DNA from: Octopus vulgaris
Lineage: Eukaryota
Assembly: GCA_951406725.2 (NCBI GenBank)
Contig: OX597819.1
Coordinates: 108,128,001-108,192,000 of the forward strand
Direction: 5' to 3'
DNA length: 64,000 nt
Part shown: positions 12,051-55,916 of the stretch, in pieces
Numbering within the stretch: the first letter of the stretch is position 1
Layout: every line of letters begins with the position of its first letter
Position numbers and translations under genes: made by a program
The notes under the pieces: model-generated
What the model was told of the DNA's origin: nothing
Seen by the model: the letters and a program-made list of their open reading frames with translations, nothing else
The model's database searches: none

Positions 12051-12089
<39 letters not shown>

Positions 12090-17580: not shown

Positions 17581-17662
17581 CATCCATCTCTTACAACACT
17601 CTTACAACATTTCATCCAACCTAACACCACAGCAAATGTTGTAACAATACTGATAAACATAC

Positions 17663-17854
17663 CTGGAATTTAGTTTTCAGTTGGTTGTTGACATGAACAA
17701 CGGCCAGAATAGTGGTTGGGTCATTTAGTGCAGCTTCTCTAATCTCAAGGCTTATGTCTGTCACTGTGTTTATGAGCAAGCGCTGAATGGCAACTTTGTC
17801 TTGACCAACTCGTATTTCTTTAGCAGCCATAACTCGGCTTGTTGGTGATAATAC
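17663..17854 (-). CDS. TMEM132: TMEM132 exon (192 bp, phase 0/0)
   Basis: caacag|GTA...TTCCAG|gtatg. Encodes VLSPTSRVMAAKEIRVGQDKVAIQRL...LKTKFQ, matching the family VLSP...EKTITVLDDKV...Q|EA segment. Confidence 0.93.
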
Positions 17855-18589
17855 CTGTTGATAGTTAAGTAAAATAGGTAAGGTTAATGAAATGTTTAAA
17901 TGTCTGAGATGTAGTGTTAATATCATTTTTTGGATAATTTACTTCACTTTTAGAGATGAAAAATGTTTTAATATTTACAGTGTTGGTGTCATGGGGAAGT
18001 GTATCTAGTACATTCTGTAAAAGGGTTATTTTTAGGAAGGGCATTCAGCCATAAAAACTTTGTCAAAACTGAGATGACTGAGTAAGATGTTGTCCTCTGG
18101 CCTGTCTAACCCAAGTCAGAATGGAAAACAGATGTAAAATAATGGTGGTGGTGATGGTATCTGCTATGTTTCAATCAGTTTGATCTTACATTGTTATCAA
18201 GTGTTTTATTCTTGGTTGAGTATGTAGCATATGTATCAGTAGTCTAGTGAATAAGGGCGTTAGTATATTTAGTTTAGAATAAAGTTTGAAGTTCAAATCC
18301 ACTCTGGTACTATATACACATCTAGGAATAAAATGCCTGATGACACTCCGAAAGAAATCAAACTTAATGATACATTGTGTAGATATAAATATTAAAGATG
18401 TTTCATTTTAAAGATGATGTTAATAGTCCAAAAAATTGCAAATGTATTAGGTGAGGTTGCATTAGTGAAAAATTCTTCATAGATTTTCTGTTCATATACG
18501 TAGAGACACTTTACCATTTACAACATACAGAATATTATTATAATAAACTTGAACTTATATAACATCATATAATAATAATTTTTTTTTTT

Positions 18590-18975
18590 ACTTGTTGCAG
18601 TCATTAGACTGTTGCCATACTGGAGCACTGCCTTCAAGAATTTTAGTCAAATGAATCAACCAGAGTCCTTATTTTTTGAAAAGCCTTATATTCATTCTCC
18701 CAGTCTCTTTTGCTGAACCACTAAATTACGAGAACTTAAATACACCAACATCGTTTGTCAAATGATGGTGAGGGACAAAAACAAACACAAAGATACACAC
18801 ACAGATGTATGTGTGTGATGGGCTTTTTTCAGTTTCTGTGTACCAAATCTACTCACAAGGCTTTGGCAAGCGTGAGGCTACAGTAGAAAGACAGTTGCCC
18901 AATGTGCCATGCAGTGGGACTGAACCTGCAAACATGTAGTTGGGAAGCAAGCTTCTTTACCATACAGCCATGCCT
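18590..18975 (-). mobile_element. SINE family A copy (diverged)
   Basis: Reverse complement of 24885-25333. Confidence 0.8.
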
Positions 18976-19879
18976 GTGCTGTTATACAACTTTATATAAT
19001 ATAAATATTATATATTACATTCATATTGTATATTTACACTTTATTTCAATTAGAAGTACAAAAGATGATGATGATGCAAAAACTGTGCATTTGTACAAAT
19101 ACACATTTTTTTAATAACTGATGTAGAAATGAATAAATAAGTTTACACAAGGCTTTTCAAGATGAAATCAAATTTTTTTTTTAATTGAAAGTATTTGAGT
19201 GATGCTTACTCACATGGATGCACACATACTTTGCAAAAAAAAAAAAAAGACATTTCTGCACACAGTCCACAGCCAAAAATTGTCTTCCAATAAAAAAAAT
19301 TGGAATTTATTTGGAAAGTCCCCATCCATGGTTCTTAGCATTAGCCAGGAAATCAGTTGCACCCACCATCTCATTGAGAAGCTAAAGATGTTGAGTAAAA
19401 TAGACTCCAGTAATGACTCAAAAAACATTGAAGCTATTGATTGGTACAGTATAGTCCTGGAAGAGATACTGCTAGTTCTTGTGGACAATAGGTTGCAATA
19501 TTACCATGGAAAGATGCTGCTACAGTTGATGGGCGACATATCAAAACAGATATGGAGGATATAATGTCAGGTAGATTCTGCCATGACCTGAAATCCATTG
19601 CATAAACTGTCACTCTTCTTAGACAGTAGATATAATATTTAGCCTGGTTTAACACCAGTACTTGGCTGTTGAGTGCTTTAGTGAAGTGCATTCTGATGCA
19701 AGCATCCAGACAAGATACCCAGATTATTCCTTCCTTTTCCCCACTAGCTTCGTGCATCCTTTTCTTTGATTAAGCCCCAAGAAAATAAATAAAATAAATT
19801 AAAGAGAGAGGAGTAATCACTGACAAAAAGTTAATGTGAAATACAGAGTCATCTCCCTTGGATTAATATAGCTGCTTAC

Positions 19880-20144
19880 TTGAATTTCTGTCAAGCCTGG
19901 GTTTTTGCCCATAATAATATTCCCGCTTAAGGAAGCGATGTGGGAGTCAGACAAACGTAGACGGTCCTTCAACATTTCAGTGACACGGAAGTAAGTCTTC
20001 TTGCCCGTGTAGTACTGCAGCCGACCATTTTCTAGGACACAGAAGCTAGCGTAAACATCAACGGTTGACTGTTGGTAACGCAGACGACACATATTTCGTG
20101 TTGGGTCATCCATTCCAAGAATTTTGTCCCTCTTCTTACGGCGA
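19880..20144 (-). CDS. TMEM132: TMEM132 exon (265 bp, phase 2/0)
   Basis: ttgcag|T...ATTCAA|gtaagc. Encodes RRKKRDK...CRLRYQQSTVDVYASF...RVTEML...PGLTEIQ, matching the family CxLQYQxAxVxVLTQF...PGxTxIQ segment. Confidence 0.93.
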
Positions 20145-21309
20145 CTGCAACACATGGAAAATAAATAGATAAATAAAATAAGAAATGGTAAAATATATGA
20201 ATCACTGATTTTCGTAAACCATTAATTTTCCTTGGCATTGTCCTTACATTACAATATTAGTGAGACATCATGAGAGAGGGAAGGAGGGGATTTATGAATA
20301 TTTCTAATTTTAGATACAGGGCCACTCATTCTGAGGGAGAATATAGTCGATTAAATTGACTTCACTACTTGACTGTTTGTTTTTTTGTCGACTTTGAAAG
20401 AATGAAAACATTGACATTATCTGAATTTGAACACAGTTTGTAATTAAATGCTGCAAGGGATTTTGATCAATACTCTTTCAAATCTACCATCCACTACACT
20501 GGAAGCAGTCTATAATACTAAAACAATCTGGTTGCAAGACTCTGGTTTGTACTCTTGTAAACAAAGCTGAAAGAGTTGACTAAATTCACACCAGTATATT
20601 ACTGGGAACTATTTGACTGAGCTTAGAGGTAATCTGAAATGAGGATGTATCAGGACAAAGCTGTAAATTGTAAAGTATTTATTCTAATGATCTATTACAA
20701 CCAGTTGGATATACCTGGACGTTATGGTATATAGGAACCCTGAAAGACTCCAGAAGCAAAAGTCTTACAAATATATTGATTGAGTTGTCTGATAAATTCG
20801 TCCATTCCTTTTTTCCATTCGTTTTAATCTGTTCCAATGTTATTTGAATTAACACAAACACTACTTTTATCATAGTTTTATAGGATTTTTTTTGAAGCTC
20901 CATTCTTCCAACTTTTGCTTACTGTATTTTAAATTTAAACAAGTTTTACCTATTTTCAGACATATGGCGGATGGAATGCCAAGCAGAAAGAAACAAAACA
21001 AATTTATCTGACAACCTAATATCTCAGATTATGTATCATCATCTTCATCTTATCTAAAATGCTTCCAATTACAGTTCAAATAACAATTTTCTGGTGTTGG
21101 GTTTGTTCACCAGAAGAAAAGGAAGTGTTCATAAATTTTGTAGATCATCCTAGACAGGTGAAATTCATGTGATTAATGAGCAGTTTGTACTTCTAAAGGT
21201 TAATGTGGATAGATGGATAGAGAAAATTCCAGTGTTTTTAGTTTTTAGTGAGATTTGTAGGAAGGGGAGAGACAACAGAGATGAAGCAAAAGAGGAGAGA
21301 CAGATATAA

Positions 21310-21430
21310 ACTTCTGTTGAACACATGCTTTCTATCTTGGCTTCCAAAGAATGCATACTTTCTATCTGGACTTTCACTGAACACATGCTTTCTAACAGAG
21401 TTGTTAATTAACATATACTTTCTATCTTAA
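21310..21430. repeat. Degenerate ~30-bp tandem repeat
   Basis: Recurrent aacacatgctttcta / atactttctatct units. Confidence 0.6.
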
Positions 21431-23430
21431 ACTTTGGATTTGATCATATATTTTACAACAATACTAAAGTTGTTTTTATATTTAGAATTTATTAATTATT
21501 TTAGAATTTATATTTAGAATTTTTGAAATCAGCATTATGACTTAGCAGAGTTGTCTGATATAATAAGTAATTCAATTTGATACATAAACAATGTCGTGTT
21601 TGGGAAATTATACTTTTGATTTCACATTCTGCCAAAGTCAACTTTAATCTTCATTCTTCCAGGATAAATAAAATTGGTGTTGGCAGTGGTATCATTGTTG
21701 TCATCACCACCATCCCCATCATTAATAATTAATAACGTATCAAACAATTTAATATTTTGGAACTATATTTGTCTGGCAAATGGCTTTTTTTTATTAGTTG
21801 GTCAGGAGAAAAGAGAACATCTATGATCCCTTTTTCAAGGCTTCTCAGACTGGTGGGAGGCAGAAAAGTAGCCTCAAACTTGAAGCCTAACTTGACTGCA
21901 TGAAACAGACAGGATTGCACTAAAGGTACTCAAGGCCCAGCTGGTGATGTAAAACCAGGCAATGGATTAAATCTACCATCCAATTAGACCACAGTGGGAT
22001 TTGAACTCAGAAAGCAAAGAGTTGGAGAAAATACTGCATGCCAACTTGTTTAACACTTCAAGGTTTCCATTAGTCCACTAACCTCAACTAGTATACTTCA
22101 TATATTATATATTGCCCTGGAGAGGATGAAAAACTAAGTTGATCTTCGTGGGAATTGAACTCTGAATGCAAAACCACAGAGAGTTTTGTCTAACACTAAC
22201 AACTCTGCCACTGAAATCATTGCATTGTAGCAGAGTTTTGCTAGTCATTTAAAACATATAGCTTTACGTTCACTTTTGTTTTATTTTCTAATAATATTAT
22301 GAAATGAAACAAAAAGTGATGTTTGTTTTTGAATAAAATATAAAAAAATGGTCTATGTGTGTTATTAATGACTACCATGGCTCTACTATAACAATAATTT
22401 AACACAATGTTTAGGATCACAAGAATGTGAGGAAATTAAGAGTGGGGTGTGTGTGAAAGAGTCAGTGGAATACAAGATAAAAATGAGGTACAGTTAATGT
22501 GCTGTTAGAAGTAGAGAAGAGAGGAAATATTTAATATTTAAGAGGAAGTGTTTCATCATGAGAACACCTGATGAAGTATTCTACATGAAACACTGCATAT
22601 TACTTCATATCTGAATAAACAAGCATATTGTAACATAGTGTAAACATATTTGATGTATATTAATACATTTCTAGTTAGCATTAAAAAGCTAACAAGTTAC
22701 AGATAGTATCTCTGAATGATTTAATATATAACTAAATAATTCTGTTTCTATGCCAATAAATGTATTATAATTTGTGATTGTTCCACCACTTCTTTGGCAC
22801 ATGTTGTGAAGTCTATATTTTGCTAAAGAAATCAGGATAATACCAAAACATGTCTGGAGTTGTCTATCATACTTGAAGAATGTAAAGATAATATTGATCA
22901 TTATTATTTTCAATATTTTCTTGTGAAATGTGAAGGTGGCAAGGAATCCTGGACTCATTTAACATCACTTCAGTCTCCTAAGTTGAAAATAAATACCATC
23001 TGAGTACTGGTGCAGCATTATCTCCACCCCACAGTCATATCTTCAATGTTTTTCTGAGTCAAAGGAGGGAGGGCTTAGGGGGTATTTATATCAGCTCCTG
23101 ACTATACAATAATTAGTGAAGCATGGAGAACGGACGTTAAACGATGATGATGATAGTACATGGTAGCAAGTCATACTCATTTGTGAGTATTTGCTATGGT
23201 TCTGGTTCCTCATCACATATCTATTTCTAATTAACATCTCGTTATTCCCAGCATTTAGTATATTAATACTTAACTGTTGTTTTTCATATGGATAAAAGAA
23301 CATAGGTTTACTTAACCAAAGTTGACCTGAAGCTAAGCAACAATAGCAACAACATACACACACACACACACACACACACACTGAGAAACATCAAATCAAT
23401 TGCCAATAAAAAGAAAGTGTGGTAACTTAC

Positions 23431-23636
23431 AGCAAGATGCGGTCCTTTGTCACTTTCCATCGTTTGATCTGACTGAGTTTGTTATCTGACAACTGGATGT
23501 TGAGTCTTTCATCTGGCATCCACACTGTGACATGTGTAAAGGCAACCAGCTGCCGTGACTTGGCAATTACTGTGACATTGCGTGACCCAATCTTCTCTTT
23601 GCCATCAACATAGATGAAGGAACAGTTCCGAGAAAC
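23431..23636 (-). CDS. TMEM132: TMEM132 exon (206 bp, phase 0/2)
   Basis: ttgcag|GTT...TTGCT|gtaagt. Encodes VSRNCSFIYVDGKE...TVWMPDERLNIQLSDNKLSQIKRWKV, matching the family VSxxCDYIFVNGKE...TVWVP...SDTELNQIKGW segment. Split codon CT+T fits the next exon. Confidence 0.95.
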
Positions 23637-23727
23637 CTGCAAACAAACAACAATTATTATTATTATTATTATGATTATTATTATTATTACTACTACTACT
23701 ACTACTATTATTATTATTATTATCAAT

Positions 23728-24180
23728 AAGGTGGCAAGCTGACAGAATTGTTAAAATGTCAGATAAAATGCTTAGTGGTATTTCTTCTGGCTCTCTACAT
23801 TCTGAGTTCAAATTCTTCAGAAGTTGACTTTGCCTTTCTTCATTTTGGGGTCAATAATATAAGCACCAATCAAGTACTGGGGTCAATATAATCAACTCCT
23901 GAAATTTCAGGCCTTGTGCCTATATAAGAAACAATTGTTGTTGTTGTTGTTTTTAATAAAGGTGACAAGCTGACAGAATTGTTTGCCTATCAGACAAAAT
24001 GCTTAGTGCTGTTTCTTCAGTCTTTTTACATCCTGAGTTGAAATTCTGCTGAGGTTGATTTTGGCTTTCATTCAAATGATGTTGATAAAACAAGTACCAG
24101 TTGAGCAGTGGGGGGTCAATGTAATTGACTTCCCCAACTTCCCTGAAACTGGTGGCCTTGTGCCAAAATTTGACACCATT
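23728..24180 (+). mobile_element. Two tandem SINE family B copies
   Basis: aaggtggcaagctgacagaattg heads at ~23728 and ~23960, with gagttcaaattc B-box and the shared core. Confidence 0.8.
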
Positions 24181-24557
24181 ATTCTCACAAGGAGGCAACC
24201 AGGTAGAATCATTAATGCATTGGGCAGAAAATGATGGTACAGTCATGAGTGAAATGATTTTGACCATAGGTCTGCTTGATAAGAGCCAACAGGAGTCTAA
24301 ACAACAATAACCTCAGACTAACGAGGGCGATTTCTTGACTAGCTAGAAACAAATTCAATTACTCTATCATCTTAAAAAAGCAGACACATTGGGTTAATGC
24401 AATTCTGGATTCACTATGTCTGGAAAAAAAAAAAAGCAGGAAAGTCATGGCTGGAATGCCTTTGACCTTATGTCTTCTGGGTCAGGGCTGAAAAACAATA
24501 CTGATAATTACAGTCATTAGAGAGGATTGACCATTAAGAAAACCATTCTCCAAATAC

Positions 24558-24701
24558 CTTTAAGACGTTATCATTGCTTGAATGACAAGATGTCAGCCAT
24601 GTGACATCATGGATGCTCCCTTCTTTGTTCACCACAAATATCTGTAATGGGTAGATTTGTGTTCGACCAGTGAGGGATGCAACGTTCATTATCTCAGTCA
24701 C
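24558..24701 (-). CDS. TMEM132: TMEM132 exon (144 bp, phase 0/0)
   Basis: tttcag|GTG...TTAAAG|gtatt. Encodes VTEIMNVASLTGRTQIYPLQIFVVNKEGSIHDVTWLTSCHSSNDNVLK, matching the family EILNTAVLTG...CxSxDEDVIK segment. Confidence 0.93.
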
Positions 24702-24884
24702 CTGAAAAATGGAGAGAAATAAAGAAAATTTTAAAAAATTTCAATTAAAAAATATTTTTAAAAATTAAGAAAAAGTGTTTACATGATTAATTATGACAAA
24801 GGATTTCTGAATCATAGTGAAATTATAGTAAACGGGATGTACAAAATAACTTCTTACTTCCCATCCTCCCATTTTAAAAATATT

Positions 24885-25044
24885 GAGCAAGAGTGGCTGT
24901 GTGGTAAGTAGCTTGCTTACCAATCACATGGTTCTGAGTTTAGTCCCACTGCATGCCACCTTGGGCAAGTGTCTTCTACTATAGCCTCGGGTTGACCAAA
25001 GCCTTGTGAGTGGATTTGGTAGACGGAAACAGAAAGAAGCCTGT

Positions 25045-25107
<63 letters not shown>

Positions 25108-25333
25108 GTGTATATGTTTGAGTGTCTGTGTTTGTCCCCCCAACATCGCTTAACAACCGATGCTGGTGTGTTTATGCCCCTGTAACTTAGTGGTTCGGCA
25201 AAGAGACCGATAGAATAAGTACTAAGCTTACAAAGAATAAGTCTTGGGGTCGATTTGCTCGACTAAAGGCAGTGCTCCAGCATGGCCACAGTCAAATGAC
25301 TGAAATAAGTAAAAGAGTAAAGAGTAAAAGAGT
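24885..25333 (+). mobile_element. tRNA-derived SINE family A, full copy with internal (TA)n and (GTAAAAGA)n tail
   Basis: A-box gagtggctgtgtggtaag and B-box-like ggttctgagtttagtccc. Other copies at 18590, 28810 and 50552. Confidence 0.88.
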
Positions 25334-27477
25334 ATTCCTGTCTGGTCTGTTAGAAAATTCCAGAATTTCTTATTGCCGTGTTTATTTAAATGAAGGAACA
25401 TGGGTTCAATCAGTAAACAAGTTTCCAGTAGACCATTAGTACATGGTGCATTGGGCTTGAAAGTATTGAAAAACAAAACTGACTGGCTAGATTTGAAAGC
25501 AGAAGCACGAGGTCATTGATTAAATACAAGAAAACATCTGTTCCATGTTCACCTCAGCATCACACACAAGGCAAGAACTTAAATTACAACTTCAGCCCAA
25601 GTGGACAATAATCTGCTTGATAGAGTCAACTGGGACTTTCAGGATGAGAATAAGTCCATGTTTAGAAGAAATAAATGAAAAGTGACAATTTTCAGACACT
25701 TGCAATTGTATGAGTTGATGATGTGACTTGAACTTGTTTGGTGGCATTTGCTTTCAAATGAAGATCTGTAAAATGGCATTTATGATTATTTTATCTCTTG
25801 TAAGTTATTATGTTTATGATTTTAAAGTACATCCTTTAACATAAAGTTATGTTAGAGACAATTCAAAAATGCTTAGGAACAAAAAAAACAAACAAGTGTA
25901 ATATTCACCCTTTAGTGTTCAAATTTCTTTGTCAAATATAATGTTTATTTATTTACATTGTTTTGAATTAATCATGCATAATCTTTTAGCTTCAAAACAG
26001 GTAGAATATTTGGGCTGCATATGGCCAGATTAAACACTAAAGGTTGAAATGAAATTAATATACTAAATACAGAAATTATAAAGACCACCTTTTCAAATCA
26101 TCAAAAACTTCAAACAGCCAGAATTTAAAGAAGACAAAGATTAATGCATTAAATAGTTTAAAAATTGTAGGAAGTGTTTGAAAATTTGTAATGTATGATG
26201 TGAAAAACTTAGAAGCATTTATAAATAATTTATTTAATATGTTTGCAGTTGCACAAATGTGTACATCTATATTTTGCTTTCTTTTGCATTTATATGATGA
26301 ACTTGTTTTGTGCAGAATCATTTTACATTTGAAGACATCCTACCAAGGATAGTAAAGTGCAAGCTGAAAATAGCCTTTTGCTTTTTTCAATCAATCCATG
26401 ATTGCAGAGTTTTGCTGCAGCTTCATTAGCTCATAAGCTGTAATCCAAATGTCTGCTTGAAAACACTGCTTTTGAAATAATAATTTGAAGCCTCATTTAT
26501 TAAGAGAATTCTCTCCATATCCCTGGTCTTGTGACAGAAGATTTTTTTTCACTCTTCATAAATCAATATTGGCACCATCAGTGCAAGATTCATTGCAGTG
26601 CAGCCTACAAACAAACTGCACCACAACAATCTATCAGTTATGGTGATATCTGACATGGAGCAACTGCAAATTCTTTGATAAGGTGTAGTACTTTGTCCTT
26701 CATCTTGCAACAGTATCACTTCCTTAAATATGAAAGCTGATCTGTTGTCTGATTCAGAGAAAGCCTGAAAAAAAAATAAGTCATTGCTTTGCATGTTGTC
26801 TCTCCTAAACTCAAAGCAGTGCAGCTATAGGAATTTGTGGTTTCTTTCCCAGTTTTTAATGAGAACCAAAATTCTGGCTCTGCATCTGTAGTCAAATATA
26901 AAATTACTCAGAAATATTACTACACCTGCGTCACATTCCAAGACATACTTGCATTAAGTTTTGGCTATTTGGAGTTTTCAATGATTCAGGTGTACTGTCT
27001 TTATAATTCATGCATATAATATCATATAAACTTTGTTTGATATTGCAGTTGATTTTTTTTTTTTATCTTAAGCATTTTTAATTATCTCTAAATTAACTTG
27101 ATATTAACAGCTTCACTGGCATCGTAAATACTTATAAATACCTTATAAAGACAAAAGATTCTTCTTTGAAAGTAAATGTCACCAAATATGTACAGACTAT
27201 TAACTCTAATGTTACAGAAATTTTTTAATATTGTCACCATCTTCTTAAACACAGCTCATTACAACAGCTGGTCTCATATACCTAAATATTGGGTTCATTG
27301 CCCACTGGAGTTGAAGACATAATTTAGATCCTTACCTTTAATGGGAAACCACAAAGTAAACTTTTGCACCAGTTTGAAATGAAAATTAAATTTTGTCATA
27401 GTTCTATATTTAAGAGATGAGAAATTATGTACACTATTTACATTTGACAAATATTTGTCCTCATCTTGTTTGTTGCT

Positions 27478-27523
27478 TGCACAACATTTCAACTGATATA
27501 CCCTCCAGCCTTCATCAGGTGTC
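27478..27523 (-). ncRNA. Minimal type I hammerhead motif, decayed
   Basis: gacac-CTGATGA-a-ggctg-gagggtatat-cagtt-GAAA-tg-tt-gtgca; stem II and stem I are weakened. Confidence 0.6.
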
Positions 27524-27669
27524 TTGGGAAAATTTAAAACCTGGGTTCTCATTCCTAAGGTATTTTTATATATTATTATTATTATTATTATTCAGGTCAC
27601 TGTCTGGAATCAAACTCGGAATCTTGAGGTTAGTAACCTGCACATGTAACCACTATGCCATATGCCTAT

Positions 27670-27742
27670 GGGCATATGGCATAGTGGTTAAGAGCGCAGG
27701 CTACTAACCCCAAGACTCCAAGTTCGATTCCAGACAGTGACC
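27670..27742 (+). promoter_or_regulatory. tRNA-derived head / internal Pol III promoter (mirror copy on the minus strand at ~27595-27667)
   Basis: A-box TGGCATAGTGG and B-box GTTCGATTCC at tRNA spacing, with a 7-nt loop CTACTAA. There is no T4 terminator in the downstream arm until the TSD. Confidence 0.75.
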
Positions 27743-27817
27743 TGGAACGCCGCCGCCGCCGATGACAACGACAACAAATACCTTAGGAATGAGAACCCAG
27801 GTTCGAAATTTCCCCAA

Positions 27818-27860
27818 GACACCTGATGAAGGCTGGAGGGTATATCAGCCGAAACGTGTT
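27818..27860 (+). ncRNA. Minimal type I hammerhead motif with a 3-nt deletion at the cleavage site
   Basis: gacac-CTGATGA-a-ggctg-gagggtatat-cagcc-GAAA-c-gtgtt, versus GAAAcgttgtgtt in the 38451 copy. Confidence 0.7.
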
Positions 27861-28653
27861 AACAACAAACAAGATGAGGACAAATATCTGTCAAGTGTAA
27901 ATAATATACATAATGAAATTTTGTCATGTCCAACATCTCACTATTTTGTCCAGTTTTGAAAAGTTTCATCTTTTTTTTTTTTTTGGTACACTATATCTAG
28001 TCTACTCCAGTATTTTCCAGCAAATTTCCTTCCTATATACCCAAGCTTAAACTCATCCAGTGTCTCCCATTCAGTTCAGTCAATGCAGGTTATACTCAAG
28101 GATTTACGGTACTACTCAAGTCCAGCACTCCTTTGGTTACAACTACAAGGGTTCCAGTTGATCTGACCAAACAGCCTGCTCAGGAAATTAACATGCAAGT
28201 GGCTGAAAACTTCATTAATTTGTCGATGGAGTGATGACTAAGCCCTCCACAGACAAGCACACCATTAATGGAGTTTTCAGGGAGATTCAGCATGACTCAG
28301 AATGTGACAAGGCCAGCCCTTTGAAATACAAGTACTGTAAATCCTCGAGTATAGCCCGCCCTTGAGTATAATACGCAGGGGATTTTTAGGGGGCTGTACC
28401 TCTGAAAAACCAAGAATCTTTGCACCCTTTCCTCTTTATGTTTCCCTTACTCTTCACCATTATGTATCTTTGTGGTTTATCCTGTACTGTATACCATACA
28501 CGCACTTTAGCTAATGTTACTAACTTTCTTTATTTAATTTATTGATGCTTCCTTTGGCCCTTTTCTTATTTTACCCTTTCCCAATTAGTTCTAGTGTACC
28601 TGGGCACTGTATACAATAAGTTTATTATCATCATTATCATCATCATCATTATA

Positions 28654-28689
<36 letters not shown>

Positions 28690-28809
28690 CTCAGTATTAT
28701 CTAGACCTATCCTATTTAGTCTTGTCCATTCCAGCACCAGGCATTCTATATAATTTAGATTTGTGAAGTTATATTTCGCATTCACCAGCTTTATCTAATC
28801 TAATATCTC

Positions 28810-29229
28810 TTTTACTCTTTTACTTGTTTCAGTCATGTGACTGTGTCCATGGAGCATCTTAGTCGACAAATCGACCCCACTTATTCTTTGTAAGACTAGT
28901 ACTTATTCTATTGGTTTCTGTTAAGTTACGGGGATGTGCATTGGTTGTCAGCGATGTTGGGAGGAGCTTCTTTCAGTTTCCGTCTCAAATCCACTCACAA
29001 GGCTTTCTATAGTAGAAGACACTTGACCAAGGTTCCACGCAGTCCGGGACCATGTAGTTCGTAAGCAAGCTACTTACCACACAGCCACTCCAATGCCTGT
29101 TAAATATCATTTAATATTATATAATCTTTTCTCCTAGAATGTCTTTTGCCAAACTGTTAAGTTACGGGGATGTAAACACACCAGCATTGGTTGTCAAGCG
29201 ATGTTGGGGAGACAAACACAGACACACAA

Positions 29230-29272
<43 letters not shown>
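28810..29272 (-). mobile_element. SINE family A copy riddled with small deletions, plus a second partial copy ending in (TA)n
   Basis: Colinear with the reverse complement of 24885-25333 but with many short gaps. Confidence 0.8.
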
Positions 29273-29274
<2 letters not shown>

Positions 29275-29276
<2 letters not shown>

Positions 29277-29407
29277 TGTTTGGAATAAAGTGATGTTCTC
29301 TGGCCTTGCTATCAACTTCATACTCCACACTCCAAATGATGCGACCAACTTCAAAACCAGACAAATTATTGTCAACCTGCAGTTTCCATTTGAAGATTTC
29401 TTGTGGC
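29275..29407 (-). CDS. TMEM132: TMEM132 exon, 5' part only (no donor found)
   Basis: Acceptor tcttttgttgcag|G. Encodes PQEIFKWKLQVDNNLSGFEVGRIIWSVEYEVDSKAREHHFIPNK (family EI...IxWxVEY motif), then runs directly into (TA)n. Confidence 0.75.
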
Positions 29408-30304: not shown

Positions 30305-30534
30305 TAAATACACATAGGGTGGTGAGCTGGCAGAATCATTAGCACACCAGGTAAAATGTTTAGTGGAATTTTGTCTGTTTGTATGTTCTGAGTTAAAATT
30401 CTGCACAGGTTGTTTTTGCATTTCATCCTTTCAGGTCAATAAAATTAAGCACCAGTTGATCACTTGGGTCGATGTAATCAACTTACCCCTTCCCCTAAAT
30501 TGCTGGCCTTGAGCCAAAATTTGAAACCAATATA

Positions 30535-36135: not shown

Positions 36136-36167
<32 letters not shown>

Positions 36168-36171
36168 TACA

Positions 36172-36356
36172 AAATTAGAAAAAAAACACCTTTTATCAAT
36201 TCAAAATGAACAATTAAATTACATATAATAGAAATATTAAAATTTTAATAATTTTAATATTTTTAATTTTAATATTTCTATTATATGTAATTTTCTAGAA
36301 GGTGTAATTTAATTGTTCATCTTGAATTGATAAAAGATGTTTTTCTTTCTATTTTT
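36172..36356. repeat. Nested AT-rich inverted repeat
   Basis: Outer ~47-bp arms (caccttttatcaattcaaaatgaacaattaaattaca / tgtaatttaattgttcatcttgaattgataaaagatg) and inner ~26-bp arms (ttacatataatagaaatattaaaatt / aattttaatatttctattatatgtaa). Confidence 0.85.
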
Positions 36357-36458
36357 TTAATATATATATATATTATATTGTGTGAAATTTGATTTAGTAT
36401 TTCTAAATTGAATTTTTTTTCCCCTGTAAGTTTGGATTTATATTCCCTCAAATAATAA

Positions 36459-37110: not shown

Positions 37111-38272
37111 TCATAATTCAGTGAAGGGAAGCCAGGATTTAACCATTGGATGATTTGCAGTGGGATTGCTCACCCTAAGTAATCCTACCTACTTCTTACT
37201 ACACAATGCGGTTAGCCTGAACCTGGACTATGCTTGAATGCTCATATGTTTTGCACTGTACATCACAACAATCTCTAAATTTTTTTGGCACAGTTCCTTT
37301 TTAGCATGCTGGATAAAAAAAGGGTTGTAAGCTCCTTGCTTGACCCTTTTCCATTTCTTGCATGCACAGAAGATTGTGAGTGGTACCAGACAATCTTTAC
37401 ACACCAAAATGTAATTAATTGAGATAGAGAGAGAGGGAGAAAGAGGGGAGGGGTATAGATGGAAGGCAGAGAGATTGAAGGAGAGCAGGGGGGAGAGAGA
37501 TGGAAGGAGAGAGAGGGGAGGGAGGGAGGGAGGGGGTACTGAAATTTTATTTATTGCCCTTGAAGGATGAAAGGCAAAGTTAAACAGTGAAATTTGAACT
37601 CAGAATGCAAAGAGCCAAAACAAATACCACAAGACATTTGTTCACCATACTAATTAATCTAGAAATTGAATGCCTTCATATTACACACACATCTATATCA
37701 AAGTATACAAGAATGAAGTATGTATGTAATTATACTGTTTTCTGTCAATGGATCATAGCCATGCCAGGGCATCACCTTCGAGGTTGAAGCAGCTCAAAGC
37801 AGCCCCTGCAGTTATTTCAGTTGCTCTATCTATATTTATGGAATAGCTGAAAGATTTATTGATGTAGAGGGATGTAATTCAAGACAAACCACATCTACAT
37901 GTGTAATAGGGTGCTACACATTCTAAATCTAGCAAATTTCACACATACGTTATTGGTCAACCTGAGGCTGTAATAGAAGCCTTTAGCACGAGATAGTGTG
38001 CAATGCACACACAAACACACACAAGTTCTAGTGCAACCTATTCAAATGAATATGGTAAAACCACATAGAAAAGGTATTCTGAATATGAACATATTGTATT
38101 AAAAGTGTGAGTCCAACAAAATATGTTTTGTTTTGTTCAATGAACACACCAGGAAACACAGAACCATGTTAGTGGCATTCATTTAAAGCTATCGCAAAAT
38201 AAAACATAATAATACTACATTATTTACATTATTTACATTTGACAAATATTTGTCCTCATCTTGTTTGTTGTT

Positions 38273-38318
38273 AACACAATGTTTCGGCTGATATACTCTC
38301 CAGCCTTCTTCAGGTGTC
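38273..38318 (-). ncRNA. Minimal type I hammerhead motif with one substitution in stem III
   Basis: gacac-CTGAAGA-a-ggctg-gagagtatat-cagcc-GAAA-ca-tt-gtgtt. Confidence 0.7.
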
Positions 38319-38450
38319 CTGGGGAAATTTCGAACCTGGGTTCTCATTCTCAGGGTATTTTTCAGTGACCTGAATAATAGTAATAATAATAATAATAATA
38401 ACTTCAAAGAATACCTTAGGAATGAGAACCCTGGTTCGAAATTTCCCCAG

Positions 38451-38496
38451 GACACCTGAAGAAGGCTGGAGAGTATATCAGCCGAAACGTTGTGTT
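38451..38496 (+). ncRNA. Intact minimal type I hammerhead ribozyme (Penelope-type)
   Basis: Stem I gacac/gtgtt; core CTGAAGA plus an extra A; stem II ggctg/cagcc; GAAA; palindromic stem III AACGTT. Predicted cleavage after GUU at 38491. Confidence 0.8.
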
Positions 38497-41400
38497 AACA
38501 ACAAACAAGATGAGGACAAATATACGTTAAATGTAAATAATGTACATAATTCTTCATCTCTCAAATATAGAACTGTATGATAATACTAATAATAAAAAAT
38601 AATTCATACAGTGGTGTTTGTTCTTCATGTTAAATCCAATCCTGTTACTTGAAATTTGAACTCAGAACGTAAAGATGAATGAAACGCTGTTAGCATTTTG
38701 CCTGGCATCCTAACAATTTTTCCAACTCGCTGCCTTAATTCAATGAGTAATATCAGTTCAGTTTCTCTTTCGTGATTATTGTTGTTTTTGCAGTTTGTGT
38801 TGTTTAGCCCCAAGTCTGCACCGATTGAATAAATCTATGATCAAATGTGTTCCAGCCATGCCCATCTTGTATTTTGTTTATTGACAGTATATTCTTCCTT
38901 CTTTTCTGTTTTTTTTTTAAAGACATGATGTATTGGAATAAATTTGGATGTTATTTCTAGCAGCTTGAGTGGTTGCATAGAAGCTCCTTTTTCATAGTTG
39001 ATGTTGTTCTTGTTGCTGATGGTGGTGGTGATGCCGCTGATGTTCTTGTTGTTGCTGGTCTTATTTATAAACCTGTTGATATTTAACAAAATATTACAGG
39101 AGTTGTTTATGTTATTGTCAGGGCTGCTGTCTTATAGTCACCATCACTATTGATATTGTCATTGTAGCTGTAGCTGTAATTGTTGTGGTGAGTATGTTTA
39201 GTGCCATTTGAAACAGGAGACTGAGATGAAGTGGTAGAACACACATTGAGACAAACTCATACACAAACTCACATACAAATACTCACACAATGACAGAATC
39301 ACACACACAAAACAAACAAAAAATACATACACAGAGGAATTTACACACAAACACTGGCAGACCTATACATACACATACAAAAAAACAAAAGGAAACACAC
39401 ATGCATACACACACAAACACACACACACAAACACTAGTTAGCTGACACTTAAGGTGTAGAGTGTTGTTTTTATGTCAAACTACTTCAGGGAACCAATTAG
39501 TAGATTGACAGACATCCAGATGTTTGTTACATTTCAACAACCTGAACAATCCACCCATCCGACCCACCCCACTTTCTCTCTTCTTCTCTATCCATACCCT
39601 CTGAATATTCTGAAATGTCTGAAATAATGAGGACATTTCTATCTGTGTCACATCATGATCATCTTCTGACATGGTTGGTGGAGCAGTAGCTTGTGTGATC
39701 CTAGAATTCCTACAGTAATGTTGTTTGAATCTTAGCTCTGATTAAGGCTTCAGTTAGTGCTCCAGCTTGGCTCTGATTAGAGAGGTGCAGCTTGGGTTCT
39801 GATTAAAAAATCCAGTTATGGGTTAGAGCTCCTACAATGACTCCAACTAGGGCTCTACAAGCATATGATGAGAGCATGTGCATGGTCATTTAACTAACAA
39901 AAATAGCTAAATTCCCCTCACATCATATACAACCATTTTAAAGAAGGAAGAACACATAGTATGATATTGTTCTAGATACACTTACACAGATGGGATGATC
40001 ACAGGTTTGTCCAATTAGTGCTGACCTTGATGCTAAACAACAACAACAGCTAGAACACTACTAGAGCAATTGATTACTCCTGATTGTTTAGGATAATTGA
40101 CTTTTCCTTGTCCATATGAAGAATTTTAGTATTGGAGCAAACAAGACTGACATAAGAGATCTCATTCTTTTGTTGTTGTTGTTGTTGTTATTGGAAGAGT
40201 CATTAGGAGATTGGGTAGAAAGTTTTTTCAGATTTCTCTCCCAATTTCAACTTCTGCTGTGGTCCACTTTGCCTTTGGACCCTTCTGGGTTGATAAATAA
40301 AATATCAGTCAAGTAGTGAGGTTGCTTCTCTTCTCTGTCTTGAGGTCATCTATGTTGAAAAGGCCAAGAAATGAGCATTCACATCATGGCTGCATTAATC
40401 TTTTCCATATCACTTCTGTAGATCTACTAAAAGAGTCCCGATCCAGCTGACCTATAATCAAACATGTTCAATTTCATCTTTTTATAGACACAGTCTCTCC
40501 ACCCACCTCTCTGTGTAATTACATTATCCAATGTGTTTCGTTTTTTTTTTCTTTTAAGACAATGCTTGTGATTTGAGGAAGACATTGAAATCATTTCTAT
40601 TAAGAGCTGTGATGGTTTTAACACTAGTGGCTGTAGCTGTTGTCATTGGCTTGTGGTAGCTACAGTTGTTATTCTTTGGTGGTTATACTGGTTATTGTGG
40701 TTTGTCCGTAGGTAAACTCTGAATTAAAATACAATGATGCAGTGGCGTGTTTTACAGATTATTTGTACGTCTTATATATGTTGCTGAAATGTTTTGATGA
40801 TATAATTCTCAGTAATCTGGGCTAAGATTGAATCTGGAACTTCTATTTACCAAACGGCTATGCTTTAACCACTGGCCTTACTATCCTGAAGGACAACAGT
40901 GCTGTCATTTTAAAGATCTTAAACATAAGATTTAACCAACTTGTCTCCATATATTTTGGTATGTCAAGTGCAGGCTGCCACTAAATGTATGTGTGAGTGT
41001 ACACACACACACACATGTAAACATATAAATGCAAAAGAAACTGGAGTAAAAATAGTTTTTGAATACTGAAAGTTGAGTAGACTACTATTTCAATGAAGCA
41101 GAAAGAAACCTTGCAAACTGTTACCCAGAGTTTCATGTAAACCATTCATCAGACAGTTTCTGACCAGCATGAAATTCCGAGTAACAGTTTGTGAAGATTT
41201 TTTTTCAACTATAGTAATATAGAGTGCGTGTGTGTGTGTGTGCATGTGCATGCATATGCACACGTGTGTGTATTGGAGGCAACAAATTTCATTTAAGCAT
41301 GTGGTTGGCTGTGAGTACATGCTACTGACAAAGTCACAATGATGCAGAAATTAATCTAGCATACTCACTAGCCACTGCTGTGATGTGTTTTGTCTCACTA

Positions 41401-42650: not shown

Positions 42651-43338
42651 TTTGATTTATTTACTCAATCAGGATGTTAGCCTGAGAGTAAGCGAACAAC
42701 AACTACAATTGGATCAGTGAGAAAATATATATAATACATATGTAAATAATCTGCTTCTTCACCATTTTTTTTCTAAAAAGGTAATTTGGTAAACAGAGGT
42801 ACAGGTGTTATGGTTGTCAAAGGCTTAGGGACCTTGGTTGTTTTTGTTGTTGTTCTACCCCAAATCAACCTAAAAGTCAAAGGCACTCCAGCCTTATCCA
42901 TCCTGTTTTTTTTTTATTCATGCAGTGTATCTTGGACTATGTTATTTAATGTGACCATTTAAAGAATACTGTAGGACGTGATCTGAGAAAGAGTTGATTA
43001 TTTCTAGAAAGTCCGAAAACCACATAACAACTTCCTTGTCAGTTCATTGATGGTTGTCAGGGGTAAATGTGAGTCAGATTACTGAAGTACAAGTAATTTA
43101 TGATTGTGGTACTGTATTATAGGTCATAAGGCAAAGGTAAATGTAGAGGCAGTAAAATAGTGGCGGTGGTGATGGCAGCAAAACCAGTAGAGAAAGTAGT
43201 AGTAGTGGTGGTGATGATAATAATGGTAGTAATCTAATTACTGAGAAAGAGGAAATATATGCTGAAGGTAGGTTGTTTTCAAGGTCCTGAGGTATAAACT
43301 ATTGGAGACTTGTGAGAAACAACTACTCTATATCTTAG

Positions 43339-43565
43339 GCGAGCTGGCAGAAACGTTAGAGCGCCAGGCGAAATGCTTAACGGTATTTCGTCTGTCGTTG
43401 CGTTCTGAGTTCAAATTCCGCCGAGGTAGACTTTGCCTTTCATCCTTTCGGGGTCGATAAATAAAGTCCCAGTTTCGCACTGGGGTCGATGTAATCGACT
43501 TAATCCCTTTGTCTGTCCTTGTTTGTCCCCTCTATATTTAGCCCCTTGTGGGTAGTAAAGAAATA
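43339..43565 (+). mobile_element. Young SINE family B copy with 10-bp TSD
   Basis: CpG-rich; head gcgagctggcagaa, B-box gagttcaaattcc, core gcctttcatcctttcggggtcgataaa (resembles the Meta/MESC SINE domain). TATATCTTAG at 43329-43338 and 43566-43575. Confidence 0.88.
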
Positions 43566-49469: not shown

Positions 49470-49960
49470 TGATGTAGTGTAGTGTGCTGTCGAGTGTGGT
49501 ATAGCTGAGTGTGGTATGATTAAGTGTGGTGTAGTTGAGTGTGGTGTAGATGAGTGTGGTACAGTATGATGTGTAGTGTGCTGTCTAGTGTAGTACAGTC
49601 AAGTGTAGTGTAGTCGAGTGTATGTAGTCGAGTGTGGTGTAGATGAGTGTGGTACAGTATGATGTGTAGTGTGCTGTCTAGTGTAGTACAGTCAAGTGTG
49701 GTGTAGATGAGTGTGGTGTAATTGAGTGTGGTATAGATGAGTGTGGGATAGTTGAGTGTGGTGTAGCTGAGTGTGGGGTGGCTGAGTGTGGTGTAGATGA
49801 GCATGGTACAGTATGATGTAGTGTAGTGTGCTGTCTAGTGTGGTACAGTTGAATGTGGTGTAGATGAGTGTGGTATAGAATGATGTGGTGTAGTATGATA
49901 ATATGATGTGTGTATTGTAATGCAAGTGTAGTGTAGTCAAGTGTGGTGTAGTGTTTCTCA
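49470..49960. repeat. GT-rich minisatellite (15-bp gagtgtggtgtagat-type units with higher-order duplication)
   Basis: Visible directly. Confidence 0.9.
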
Positions 49961-51799: not shown

Positions 51800-52020
51800 C
51801 CCTTTCATTACTGTATTTATTTTGAGATGCTCTGTTTTTCTTTCAATTATTTTTTATATAACCAAGAATTTAGTAAAATAACTTAGTTATCATTAAGCTA
51901 GTGTTAGGAACATAAATTGTGACTAAGGTTTGGCAGAAGATTTTAATTCAGAACTTTTGAAAACAAGACATTTGTGCTTCAGAGCCAGAGCTGGTTTCAG
52001 CTTGGTTGGTAACAAAGGGG
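51800..52020. mobile_element. piggyBac-type MITE
   Basis: TTAA|CCCTTT...AAAGGGG|TTAA. A decayed element with similar ends lies at ~25908-26044. Confidence 0.7.
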
Positions 52021-53188
52021 TTAAGGTGGTGAACTGGCAGAATCATTATTACCATGTCAGGGAAAATGCTTTGCAGTATTTCATTCATCTTTATATTCCA
52101 AATTCAAATTCCGTTAAGGTTGATTTTGCTTTTCATCCTTTTGGGGTTGATAAAATAAGTACCAGTTGAATACTGGGGTTGATGTGATTGAGTTATCCCT
52201 CTCTCGAAAATGCTGGCATTGTGCCAAAATTTGAAATCATTATTTATCTTTTAGTTGTTTCAGTCATTGGACTGTAGCCATGCTGGGTCCTTATTTTATC
52301 AACTCTGAAAGGCTGAAAGGCAAAGTCAACCTAAGCGGCGTTTGAACTCAGAATGTAAAGAGTCAGAAGAAATGTTGCTAGGCCTCTTGTCTGCGGCTGG
52401 TTTGCCTAATTTTAAAGGCAGTGCTCCAGCATGGCCATAGTCAAATGAATGAAACAAGTAAAAGAGTAAAAGAGTAAGTCTGCCAGCTTGCTGCCTTGGT
52501 ATGGTGTATAATAATGGCATGATCCAGGATGGAGAGCTGTGAATGGGTGACATGATCAATTAAAGACCAACAATGATGGCATCATAAGTACCAGTAATAT
52601 ACTGGTGCTACTAATTATATATAGTAGAGAAAGAGATAGGTAAACTAAGAGAGGGTGAGAGAGGGAAGGAGAGAGAGAGGAGAGAAAAAGAAGTAGACAA
52701 GGAACTGGAGAGAGAGAGAGGAGGAGGGAAAGAGAGGCAGAAAGAAGGAAATGAAGAGTGAGGGAAAAGAGAAGGAAAGAGAAGCTGAAAGAAACAGAGA
52801 GAGTGGAGGAGGGAAAGAGAGGCAGACGGAAGGAAATGAAGAGTGAGGGAAAAGAGATGGAAAGAGAAGTTGAAAGAAACAGAGAGAGAGAGAGAGAGAG
52901 AGAAAGGTTATTCACCTCATATAATGTAAAGGAGAGAGGAAGCAAAAGACAGTAAGAAATGAAATATGGGATGGAAATGTGGTGGGGAGATCAAAAAGAC
53001 AAGTCAGAAATAAATTCCAGGGACAACTACCACCCACACAAACAACTTATATATATCACCCCTCCTCCCACACCCAACCATACCAAACCTTCTTTTAGAT
53101 TCCAAAAATCTAAGAACTTGGTGGTGAATTCCGAAAATCCCAGACGCACCTACCACCTTCATACTTACATTTTTCTAACACAACTGCC

Positions 53189-53220: not shown

Positions 53221-54674
53221 CAATTATTATATTACTACCATTCCAACATATCACCACCACCACTTCTATCACCTTAATTATCATCATCATCACCACCACC
53301 ACCACTATAACCAATAGCCACAACTACCATCACCACGATCACTGCCACCGCCCCCGCCCCCACCACCATCACCACCATCATCATCATTCAGTTCCAAGAT
53401 AAGACATTCCAAGAGTTTTATCTACTCAGCAACTGGATGATTGCAAGGTTTCTCCATAAACTTTTCTCTGATAGCAGCAGCAGTTGTGGAGGTGATGGTG
53501 GTGGTGGCGATGGTGGTAGTAGTGGTAGTGGTGATGATGGTGGTGGTAGTTGTAGTGATGTTGGTCATGATGGGAATGGTGGCAGTAGTGGTGATTGTAA
53601 TTGATGATAGTGGTAGTTACAGTGATGGTTGTAGTGGTGGTGTTGTTGGCAACGATGGCGGTGGCAGAAACAGTTTTGGCAGTTGTGGTGGTGGTGGTTG
53701 TAGTAGTTGTAGTAGTATTGGTGTTGGTTCTGTAATGAAGGCTTGTTGTGGTTAACAGTAGAGTTGCGTATTGCATACAGTAATCTGAGAAGGAAGTAGG
53801 TTAATGGCCATAATCTTCTCTATACACCCCCACTATACACCATCAAACCAGTGAGCTACTTAGTGGTAGGTCAGCATATAAGAAATAGTAGCCAAATCTC
53901 TCTCAAATTACATCCTGCCATCTTATAAGGGAAAAATACACATCTGTACAATGTGGTCTCTGAGATAGAAAAAGTTGGGATGGTGTCAGTTGGAAGCCTT
54001 TTAACTATAAACTTCTATGCTCTGGATGGACAGGAGCTAAACAACAACAATAAATATAACAAAAGGGGACTGGAGGAGTCCTTAGTGATAATTAGGTACC
54101 ATTGATAGGGCTACTATTGAATTTGAACCACAACATTAGTTGTACAAAAGAGAAACAGAATGAGAGTCTTAGTGGCTGATGCTGCTACTGATGATGATGA
54201 TGATGATGACGATGATGGTGATGATGCTATTGCTGTAGTTGTGGCCATTGCTGTGGTTGTTTTGTTATTTTTTGCTGCTGAGTTTTTACAGTTATTGTTG
54301 TTACTATGGTGATATATTTGCTGTTGTGATTGTATTAGTGGTTGGTTTGGAATTGTTGTTGTTATTGAAGTGGTGGTGGTGGTGGTGGTAACTGAGGCTG
54401 TCATTGTTTTGGTTGCTTTCGTTGTTATTATTGATAGTGGTCATGGCATGTGGAGCGAAGAAGCAAATCATTGTTATGAAGCTAAAAGAAAATGCCTGCC
54501 ATGAACATACATGTGTCTGGCTCATGTTTAGGAGACACACATGAAAACATCAGAAATGGCTGACATCAAGAGAAAAGCTAAAAATGGAACAATCTCCATA
54601 CCACTTGGATTTGTAATTTAAGAGATACCCTTAAAAAACATAATCCCATTACCACTATCACCACCACCACCAAC

Positions 54675-54832
54675 TGGATTTGTACAGGGTTGATGGTCCA
54701 GCAATCTCAAGCCATATGAATTGTTACGTCATGGGTAAATTCAGGAAGAATATTATAAACATTTTCAAAGAATTTGACCTAAATATAACTGTTACTAACT
54801 TAACAAAGGTCAGTTTTCTGAACTTAACCCTA
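54675..54832 (+). pseudogene. Penelope-like element RT fragment
   Basis: GLYRVDG...KFRKNIINIFKEFDLNITVTNLTKVSFLNLTL resembles the PLE RT motifs GLYRDDG...KKxIIKIFKxxGLxITI..N...VxFLDVTL. Confidence 0.65.
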
Positions 54833-54962
54833 GAACAGTGGTCCTCAGCCAGGGTCCACATGTCCCTTGGGAGTCCTATATGCAACAAATTGATTATATC
54901 TCTACATCAAATATTTTTTATACTGTTTTTTATGATATTTAATTATAAAAATATGAATTTAT

Positions 54963-55916
54963 TCAGGAAGTTAAGCAAAACATTGAAGACAATCGAGGAA
55001 AACCAATGAGGTCAATTGCAAAAAAATTTCGTGTGTCAGAAAAAATAATCAGAAATGTTGTGCATGAAGACATCAGATACAAATCTTACATGATGAGGAG
55101 AGGTCAATTCATGTCAGAAAAAAACAACAGAAAACCATTTAATCAGATCCAAAAGACTTTTGAACAAACTTAAAAATCCATCAGAAGATGGTGTGATTTG
55201 TTTTTTTTCTCAGATGAGAAAAACTTTGACAAAGACCAGAAAACTAACAGAAGAAATGACAGATGGCAATGTGCAGACCCTTCTGAGGTTCCAAGAGAAT
55301 GCACACAAAATTTCCTGCAAGTGTCATGGTTTTGGGTGTTGTTAGCAATGAAGGACATGTGATGCCTCCTCACTTTTTTCCACAAGGCCTTGGGGTGAAT
55401 GCTGCTGTGCATATTGAGGTTCTGGATAAAGTTGTTAAGCCTTGGATCAACAGTGTATGCAATGGAAGACCTTATGTCTTTCAACAAGATTCTGCACCAT
55501 CACACAAGGTTCAAATGACACAAGAATGTATCTCTGACAATTTGCGTGATCGCATCACCCCCAATATTTGACCTCCTAATTCTCCAGATCTCAGTCCACT
55601 GGACTACTATGTATGGAGCATCGTTGAGAAAAATGTCAATGAACGCCCTCATAGCACTGAAGATTCTTTGAAAGCCACCATAGTTCGAACCATGTCCGGT
55701 ATGAACAAGGACCACTTAATCTGAGCTTGTAAACAATTTTGACCTTGTGTAGAGGCAGTTATTGATACTTATGGTGGTTTTATTGAATGAAAATATTAAA
55801 TTGATAATTTAGCTTTATGTTTATGCTATTTTTATAAAAATACAATTTTTTCTGTTATTATATAAGTGTTTGTTTTTAAAACCATACATCTGTCCTCAAA
55901 TACCATCTGCATCCTG
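54963..55916 (+). mobile_element. maT (DD37D) transposase pseudogene with right TIR
   Basis: MRSIAKK, FFSDEKNF, KFPASVMVLG, FQQDSAPSH and PPNSPDLSPLDY; 37 residues counted between the second and third D. Contains stops and frameshifts; ends CCTG|TA. Confidence 0.9.

Follow-up and report, generated by a model that had tools for sequence, protein, structure and literature searches.

A tRNA-headed repeat with Penelope-like ends in Octopus vulgaris and the probable origin of a headless inverted copy

We analyzed a hammerhead-bearing inverted repeat at positions 38206-38588 of a 64,000-nucleotide stretch of the Octopus vulgaris genome (contig OX597819.1, positions 108,128,001 to 108,192,000, forward strand; hereafter the window). 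The repeat is a promoterless, dead copy of a dispersed, non-coding element of high copy number. It seems probable that this element is a tRNA-like promoter joined to the ribozyme and tail of a Penelope-like element (PLE), and that it is copied by PLE machinery. Such a link would account at once for tail, inversion and hammerhead. The missing centre of the copy is likewise probably the result of truncation at insertion. The locus is organized as follows.

38206-38217, no strand: left target site duplication (TSD), 12 nt, one mismatch against the right one (sequence comparison)
38218-38362, minus strand: left arm, with no head, linker or tail; stops one letter beyond the internal 3' site
38273-38318, minus strand: left-arm hammerhead, sense to the host pre-mRNA, stem III pair broken at 38280
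38361-38374, no strand: head-to-head junction, mini-hairpin of 5 bp with a 4-nt loop
38363-38576, plus strand: right arm, with the last ~11 nt of a tRNA-like head, an (AAT)n linker to ~38409, body and tail
38451-38496, plus strand: minimal type I hammerhead of PLE type, full core, predicted cut between 38491 and 38492
38508-38559, plus strand: predicted 3' stem-loop (z -2.74, 2/200 shuffles)
38551-38576, plus strand: 26-nt tail, at one end only
38577-38588, no strand: right TSD, starting with ATGA

The arms at 38218-38362 and 38363-38576 agree at 134/144 positions around a 44-nt unpaired middle. A preliminary description of this DNA had placed their junction near 38362, and it falls between 38362 and 38363. 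Of the tRNA-like head, the right arm has only the part from position 66 onward, and the head's 3' end supplies the inner three pairs of the mini-hairpin; the left arm starts past the (AAT)n linker. Both promoter heads are absent, as that description stated; that they were deleted is an interpretation. Its candidate TSDs are real, with 11/12 matching positions between 38206-38217 and 38577-38588 and 12/12 at the other copy in the window (copy 1, 27388-27927). Random window positions matched that score in 2/300 pairs, in a control that used a narrower end window and average rather than AT-rich sites. Both loci also combine one full and one truncated arm, as proposed, and the tail-less arms stop at the same place; in the family this end lies at 38550, the foot of the outer stem of the predicted stem-loop. 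A read fold-back or assembly artefact is ruled out, since the arms differ at 10/144 positions.

The longest open frame in an arm has 56 codons. A single reading frame is open in all four arms of the window (38410-38576 and its counterparts), for up to 56 codons, and is possibly a remnant of the start of a PLE open reading frame (ORF) or a product of chance. It was not accepted as a gene, as its protein matches are translated repeats.

Copy 1 retains the centre.

27388-27399, no strand: left TSD
27400-27667, minus strand: left arm, with full head, decayed hammerhead and tail
27668-27669, no strand: centre, two letters separating the two head starts
27670-27915, plus strand: right arm, with tRNA-like head, linker and a hammerhead with a 3-nt deletion; tail-less
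27916-27927, no strand: right TSD, 12/12

Position 1 of the right head is 27670, and its A box (27677-27687) and B box (27722-27730) start at positions 8 and 53, in exact agreement with tRNA numbering. This is the sole pair of A and B boxes at tRNA spacing in the window. The arms agree at 203/237 positions, which makes them the most diverged pair, and the apex is kept. Their linkers are unlike, with GC-containing triplets on the right (27746-27776) and (AAT)n on the left (27565-27594); this contrast reflects either fast microsatellite turnover or two template RNAs. A gene model of Octopus bimaculoides (P0075) starts with nine residues encoded across the copy 1 centre, so the same centre probably exists elsewhere too. 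Translated pieces of the element are included in the Octopus protein records P0075 and P0038, and a dystrobrevin model opens with a translation of the palindrome centre, as a real or a mis-annotated exonisation.

Family-wide data come from contigs of 4/24 sequencing runs (X1, X4, X5, X8) aligned to 38335-38650, of which 38335-38409 carries no data, so that the junction is uncovered. The aligned contigs number 23,453, 22,861, 14,799 and 11,834 per run. In the two runs that cover the unique flank, the arm exceeds it in summed depth by a factor of 17,000-240,000, which gives no copy number and is read only as 10^4-10^5 arms. The unique right flank occurs in one contig in X4, one in X5 and none in X1 or X8, and no empty allele appears among the matches listed. 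G at 38450 is common to both arms of the headless locus, and A occupies this position in 92-96% of family depth; the arms therefore go back to one template or one minor subfamily. Each also carries private changes, and the two have decayed separately after their common origin. Runs of four T are absent from 6/7 sense arms, and the 3' end does not match the window's own long interspersed element (LINE), the only LINE compared.

Among the matches listed (24/947 rows), family ends cluster at two sites, 38544/38550 and 38577/38578. The respective contig counts are 286 v 306 in X1, 408 v 362 in X4 and 348 v 322 in X5; in X8 they are 316 v 131, with 38577 missing among the matches listed. Tailed and tail-less ends are thus similarly frequent, in agreement with the two-site priming of PLEs. 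The defined priming end of the preliminary description is borne out, and there are in fact two, 26 nt apart and family-wide. Past 38550, the consensus runs into a second copy of its last nine letters, which accounts for the additional G with which the tail-less arm of each window copy ends. At 38451, 27-38 contigs in three runs (among the matches listed) join the arm to a different, fixed upstream sequence, from either a sister family or an autonomous partner.

The proposed ATGA target stands only in part. It is present at both window copies; across the family there is only an A/AT bias. As 38580 is not among the ends listed in any of the four runs, and matching continues about one letter past the tail (rough ratio 0.87-0.99), ATGA is no family-wide target. 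It follows the tail at 3/6 readable target junctions (both window copies and the related locus L042, introduced below), in a count that leaves out a seventh tailed end, internal to a tandem. A weak preference for ATGA may therefore exist.

Relatives of the element were found through a 51-codon open frame of the arm, which gave 104 protein matches, nearly all of them translated repeats. By one motif, 61/104 belong to a sister family (P0039-P0047 and others) and 10 of those 61 have two or more units. These are tandem, retrozyme-like hammerhead-to-tail units of ~42 codons, an arrangement that would permit hammerhead dimers in cis. Through one sister family the comparison reached G001, where it covers 419 kb of low-GC animal-like sequence inside a bacterial genome record. 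Its contigs C52 and C16 are chimeric, with ~65% GC parts joined to ~36% GC animal-like parts (C52, 1-140 kb; C16, 260-539 kb).

G001 contains five related loci, 3/5 of which are head-to-head pairs. At L006, one arm is complete to the head start and the other is shortened and tailed; its tail is clearly homologous to that of Octopus and its TSD matches at 12/12. L007 is a partial tandem in which the head is complete, nine A form a filler and the inverted arm is short; its TSD has 10 nt. Both arms are headless at L042:556-998, as at the 38206-38588 locus, and agree at 155/161 positions. L002 stands alone, with a tRNA-like head, and L005 is a lone decayed piece. TSDs of 10-12 nt thus occur at 4/6 loci (both window copies, L006 and L007). 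The three G001 heads have A and B boxes with longer spacers and, beyond the A box, are unlike one another and unlike the Octopus head; the Octopus arm with its head has no match in G001. Several different tRNA-like heads may have been joined to related PLE hammerhead-tail ends, one in the Octopus family and three in G001. A decayed frame at L002:300-1000, which lies ~300 nt upstream of the tRNA-headed element, has motifs that we take to resemble PLE reverse transcriptase (RT) and endonuclease regions. Pattern scans gave 0 matches in GTDB, 0 in viral sequences and 0, then 1, in metagenomes; the metagenome match (L001) is a chance 22-mer, and L003 is a chance peptide match.

The hammerhead of the plus arm had been described as having every core nucleotide, and this is confirmed at 38451-38496. 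Stem I is formed by 38451-38455 with 38492-38496, core C3-A9 is 38456-38462 and one unpaired A follows. Stem II is formed by 38464-38468 with 38479-38483, G12-A15.1 is 38484-38487, and the predicted cut lies after U38491. Of the traits of PLE-type minimal hammerheads, core C3-A9, G12-A15.1, U16.1 and H17 occur together in the right arm only; the left-arm hammerhead fails at 16.2 through a CpG-type change at 38280. An unpaired nucleotide between 9 and 10.1, G10.1-C11.1, a palindromic 15.2-16.2 and the lack of a loop III are also present. The AACGUU of stem III is self-pairing, as claimed, but only its inner four of six letters pair. A minimal type I descriptor matches once on both strands of the 64-kb window, and in 1/100 dinucleotide shuffles. 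Rfam reports no hammerhead family at the gathering score or at E up to 10, and its E-value matches are microRNA models that fit any long hairpin.

The fold is conserved across families. In 11 arms from four families, helix II is paired in 96.4% of cells and helix I in 74.5%; overall, the helices are paired in 85.5% of cells, against 17-54% for slid controls. Stem II shows compensatory changes between families. In the contig alignments, ribozyme variants above 20% across the family are confined to free core position 7 and loop II, and on this basis the source copies seem to have kept the hammerhead fold.

Activity at the locus does not follow from an intact sequence. With no loop III, a monomer is unable to close stem III, and the two hammerheads, being on opposite strands, can form no dimer in cis. 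The anatomy is that of a dimer-type hammerhead, as had been suggested. The efficient cleavage attributed to it finds no support: here and below, published systems are compared through the available parts of the cited sources, and these report no cleavage of minimal hammerheads as monomers and low cleavage as dimers (PMC4209133), and an anole hammerhead that needs protein and is dispensable for PLE insertion in vitro (PMC11167929). Folding of 38440-38580 gives stem I a pairing probability of 0.00, partly because G38450 forms a rival hairpin; in whole-locus RNA, stems I and II are both at 0.00, lost to the long hairpin.

The intact hammerhead reflects a fairly young copy, not use, since it is antisense to the host intron (see below) and would be sequestered in a hairpin of 144 bp. 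Selection for an intact hammerhead at the locus is rejected, as the unchanged copy is common in the family, where CpG core sites are changed in only 6-17% of depth. Of the two hammerheads in each window copy, the one with the sense of the host pre-mRNA has suffered more (38280; 27474-27490), possibly by chance CpG decay. Since cleavage would part the promoter from the priming end, low activity may be to the element's advantage.

Several traits of PLE insertion were found, namely an inverted 5'-truncated copy, a one-sided tail and two preferred 3' ends. An inverted 5'-truncated copy beside the 5' end, with a 30-40 bp tail at one end, is a PLE signature (PMC8557442), and such copies are described as 5'-truncated at insertion (PMC8557442, PMC8969392). 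Other reports include a 31-bp tail, 8-10 bp TSDs and head-to-head junction palindromes read as self-priming (PMC3846280), as well as inverted repeats of variable size (PMC2377424). A PLE protein cuts and extends both strands at AT-rich sites, and its RT uses two internal RNA starts bracketing the tail (PMC11167929). Measured from stem II, that PLE has its hammerhead cut 26 nt downstream and one start region at 111-118 nt; here the corresponding distances are 28 and 113 nt.

We infer the following course of insertion. The unit would be a ~270-nt non-coding RNA with a tRNA-like RNA polymerase III (pol III) head, a linker, a minimal hammerhead, a stem-loop and a tail, copied in trans by an endonuclease-bearing PLE. 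The PLE protein would cut both strands of AT-rich DNA ~12 nt apart, and its RT would start at two RNA-internal sites, the tail end and 26 nt upstream. Two antisense copies joined at their far ends would then give the order TSD, tail-less inverted arm, tailed arm, TSD. Copying to the RNA 5' end would produce a full palindrome with two promoters, as in copy 1, and an early stop would lose one or both heads. The 38206-38588 locus was most likely born headless, possibly via cDNA fold-back on a small hairpin at the head's end. The start of its right arm at the hairpin 38361-38374 hints at such a fold-back; in copy 1, over the first 110 positions of each arm, such a hairpin opens at 4 positions in one arm and at 7 in the other. 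Because a PLE RT starts inside the RNA, a pol III transcript with a ragged 3' end would be usable as a template, with no need for poly(A). The palindrome may also be self-renewing, if a transcript starting a few bases into the opposite arm allows cDNA fold-back to rebuild the centre.

Several observations weigh against this account. ARAGORN recognizes the copy 1 head as a tRNA only with the threshold lowered to 60-70% of the default, at which it finds 0 tRNAs, and Rfam leaves the tRNA-like head unmatched. No autonomous PLE sharing the 3' end was found, with RT or GIY-YIG families in 0/104 protein matches. The tail is shorter (26 nt) and the TSD longer (12 nt) than published PLE values, and L042 and L002 have no clear TSD. 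A single template explains the copy 1 linker difference poorly. The comparison rests on two window loci and five G001 loci. With regard to truncation, a join of two cDNAs has to accept a junction with no microhomology, and fold-back requires a second event for linker loss. An asymmetric central deletion would give the identical sequence, and changes cluster beside the junction. Separately, a decayed frame at 54644-55009, suspected from a motif to be a PLE RT fragment, has no Pfam match.

An unlikely but serious alternative is that the same PLE-dependent element was inserted as a full palindrome, from the centre of which cruciform cutting or replication slippage later removed ~170 nt. The middle is gone on both sides, asymmetrically, leaving the 44-nt spacer, and asymmetric central loss is the expected look of a stabilising palindrome deletion. 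The form with a full centre exists in the window and probably at another locus, and three changes are grouped in the left arm by the junction. Microhomology-mediated deletions also disable many rotifer Penelope copies (PMC3846280). We nevertheless favor truncation at insertion because the centre of copy 1 sits at the first base of the head, the point where cDNA synthesis would run off its template. One arm of L006 and one of L007 reach the first bases of the head intact; a deletion would need to stop exactly short of that arm, a rare outcome. The oldest pair, copy 1 (203/237), keeps its apex and the younger pairs lack it (134/144, 155/161), although the number of pairs is small. The published 5' truncation of PLE inverted copies at insertion argues in the same direction. 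Of the proposed inactivation by apex deletion, the promoter loss in the 38206-38588 copy thus stands, and later deletion becomes the second choice to 5' truncation.

It is very unlikely that the palindrome itself replicates as a unit, in the form of a circular or hairpin RNA of retrozyme type that is cut by the hammerhead and needs its ribozyme each round. The kept fold, with variants above 20% only at free position 7 and loop II, would suit such a unit, as would the sister family with tandem hammerhead-to-tail units (10/61 matches). However, hammerheads on opposite strands are unable to pair in one transcript, stems I and II are at 0.00 in the whole-locus RNA, both arms extend through the cut site, and PLE insertion in vitro is independent of cleavage (PMC11167929). 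Two further explanations are more improbable still. Two independent, adjacent insertions of a LINE-dependent short interspersed element (SINE) in opposite orientation would fit an abundant family and the differing linkers of copy 1, but a single TSD encloses both arms with none between them, the layout recurs at 2/2 window loci and 3/5 G001 loci, the arms share a rare variant, and the tailed end has no poly(A) or simple repeat. A fold-back DNA transposon resembling a miniature inverted-repeat transposable element (MITE), with the arms as terminal inverted repeats and the hammerhead and heads as passengers, would account for long inverted arms with a TSD, but the ends are unequal family-wide (one is 26 letters longer, and the extreme ends carry no matching terminal inverted repeats), solo and partial-tandem relatives exist (L002, L007), and hammerhead, tail and tRNA head all indicate an RNA step.

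Both element copies lie in a host gene. The long terminal exon of the window is 99% identical to a protein of O. bimaculoides named TMEM132E, six exons of which occupy 13454-29406 on the minus strand; residues 1-375 were not found within the window. The exon positions and these unplaced residues indicate that both copies are intronic, with the gene on the minus strand. Other features of the window are listed below. They include an older dispersed family of ~220 nt, 70-80% alike, with inverted and tandem neighbours, which we take to resemble a tRNA-derived SINE.

29272-29406, minus strand: nearest TMEM132E exon found (protein match)
7947-8167, 8228-8463, 11816-12088, 23703-24183, 30313-30533, 38653-38730, 43338-43508, 52020-52262, 61974-62213: older ~220-nt family
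1858-5048, minus strand: nearly intact LINE of two long frames, with Pfam matches to RVT_1 and PHD in the RT frame
36153-36373: a further palindrome, its 109-nt arms separated by 3 nt and 78% complementary
49477-49950: tandem array, repeat unit of 15 nt

By itself, the 38206-38588 locus is an ordinary dead copy, and its missing centre would be the expected form of a PLE insertion. Its interest lies in an abundant family with tRNA-like heads and PLE-like ends, paralleled in a second animal, which seems little described. With tens of thousands of insertions of 300-500 bp, in which junctions, centre and TSD can be read together, PLE insertion becomes testable by counting. Such counts could separate one template from two, fold-back from joining, and truncation at birth from later loss. 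For in vitro PLE assays the element offers a compact RNA from nature, and it commonly gives rise to long hairpins within octopus introns.

Among known systems, the element resembles endonuclease-bearing PLEs (Penelope/Poseidon, Neptune) in its minimal hammerhead near the 3' end, head-to-head inverted 5'-truncated copy, one-sided tail, two 3' ends, AT-rich target and short TSD. It differs from them in having no RT/endonuclease ORF, a length of only ~270 nt, a 26-nt tail and a 12-nt TSD. Its tRNA-like promoter is internal, whereas PLEs have a pseudo-long-terminal-repeat (pLTR) promoter supplied by a tandem copy. The ribozyme shares with PLE minimal hammerheads (PMC4209133) the core, the extra nucleotide between 9 and 10.1, G10.1-C11.1, the palindromic 15.2-16.2 and a helix I of 4-5 bp; its helix II has 5-6 bp rather than 7-8. 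Pairs of minimal hammerheads on opposite strands, 100-700 bp apart, are reported from Schistosoma in the same source, the available parts of which make no link to tRNA heads.

Non-coding and probably PLE-mobilised elements are also known. They include animal non-LTR (non-long-terminal-repeat) retrozymes, which carry a type I hammerhead (10.64898/2026.07.22.740005; PMC7761336), and MRC1 of Chlamydomonas (PMC8557442). These form head-to-tail tandems, whereas the present element is dispersed, inverted and tRNA-headed; the words 'tRNA', 'octopus' and 'cephalopod' are absent from 10.64898/2026.07.22.740005. The closest precedent is provided by Sm-alpha and Sj-alpha of Schistosoma, which combine a pol III promoter and a hammerhead in a short repeat (PMC6765202). 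Unlike the element, these are tandem repeats cut into monomers (PMC6765202) with a canonical hammerhead (PMC4209133). The available descriptions mention neither a PLE tail nor head-to-head insertion for them.

The octopus SINEs OK, OR1 and OR2 are tRNA-derived and were reportedly described by Ohshima and Okada in 1994. The element shares with tRNA-derived SINEs an A/B-box head and high copy number, and with these three its octopus host. By definition, a SINE depends on a LINE and has a 3' end resembling that of a LINE (PMC10886601); the 3' end of the element is PLE-like instead, without a match to the window's own LINE. A pol III head on a non-autonomous element outside the LINE system is also known from TRIMp3 (Cassandra, Helenus and Ajax; PMC10886601). 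TRIMp3 has LTRs, a primer-binding site, a polypurine tract and 4-5 bp TSDs, and the element would be its PLE counterpart; the word Penelope is absent from the available text of PMC10886601.

The literature covered, to which Repbase, SINEBase, supplements and most subscription papers did not belong, contains no PLE-mobilised SINE and no tRNA-headed, PLE-ended element, in octopus or elsewhere. The family may therefore already have a name. In its working, the tRNA-headed element resembles a SINE, and in its insertion, a PLE. We tentatively propose an undescribed class of SINEs that parasitise PLEs instead of LINEs, a possibility that falls somewhat short of our confidence in the PLE link itself. 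SINE-style parasitism, known on LINEs and lately on LTR elements, is thereby suggested for a third class of retrotransposon.

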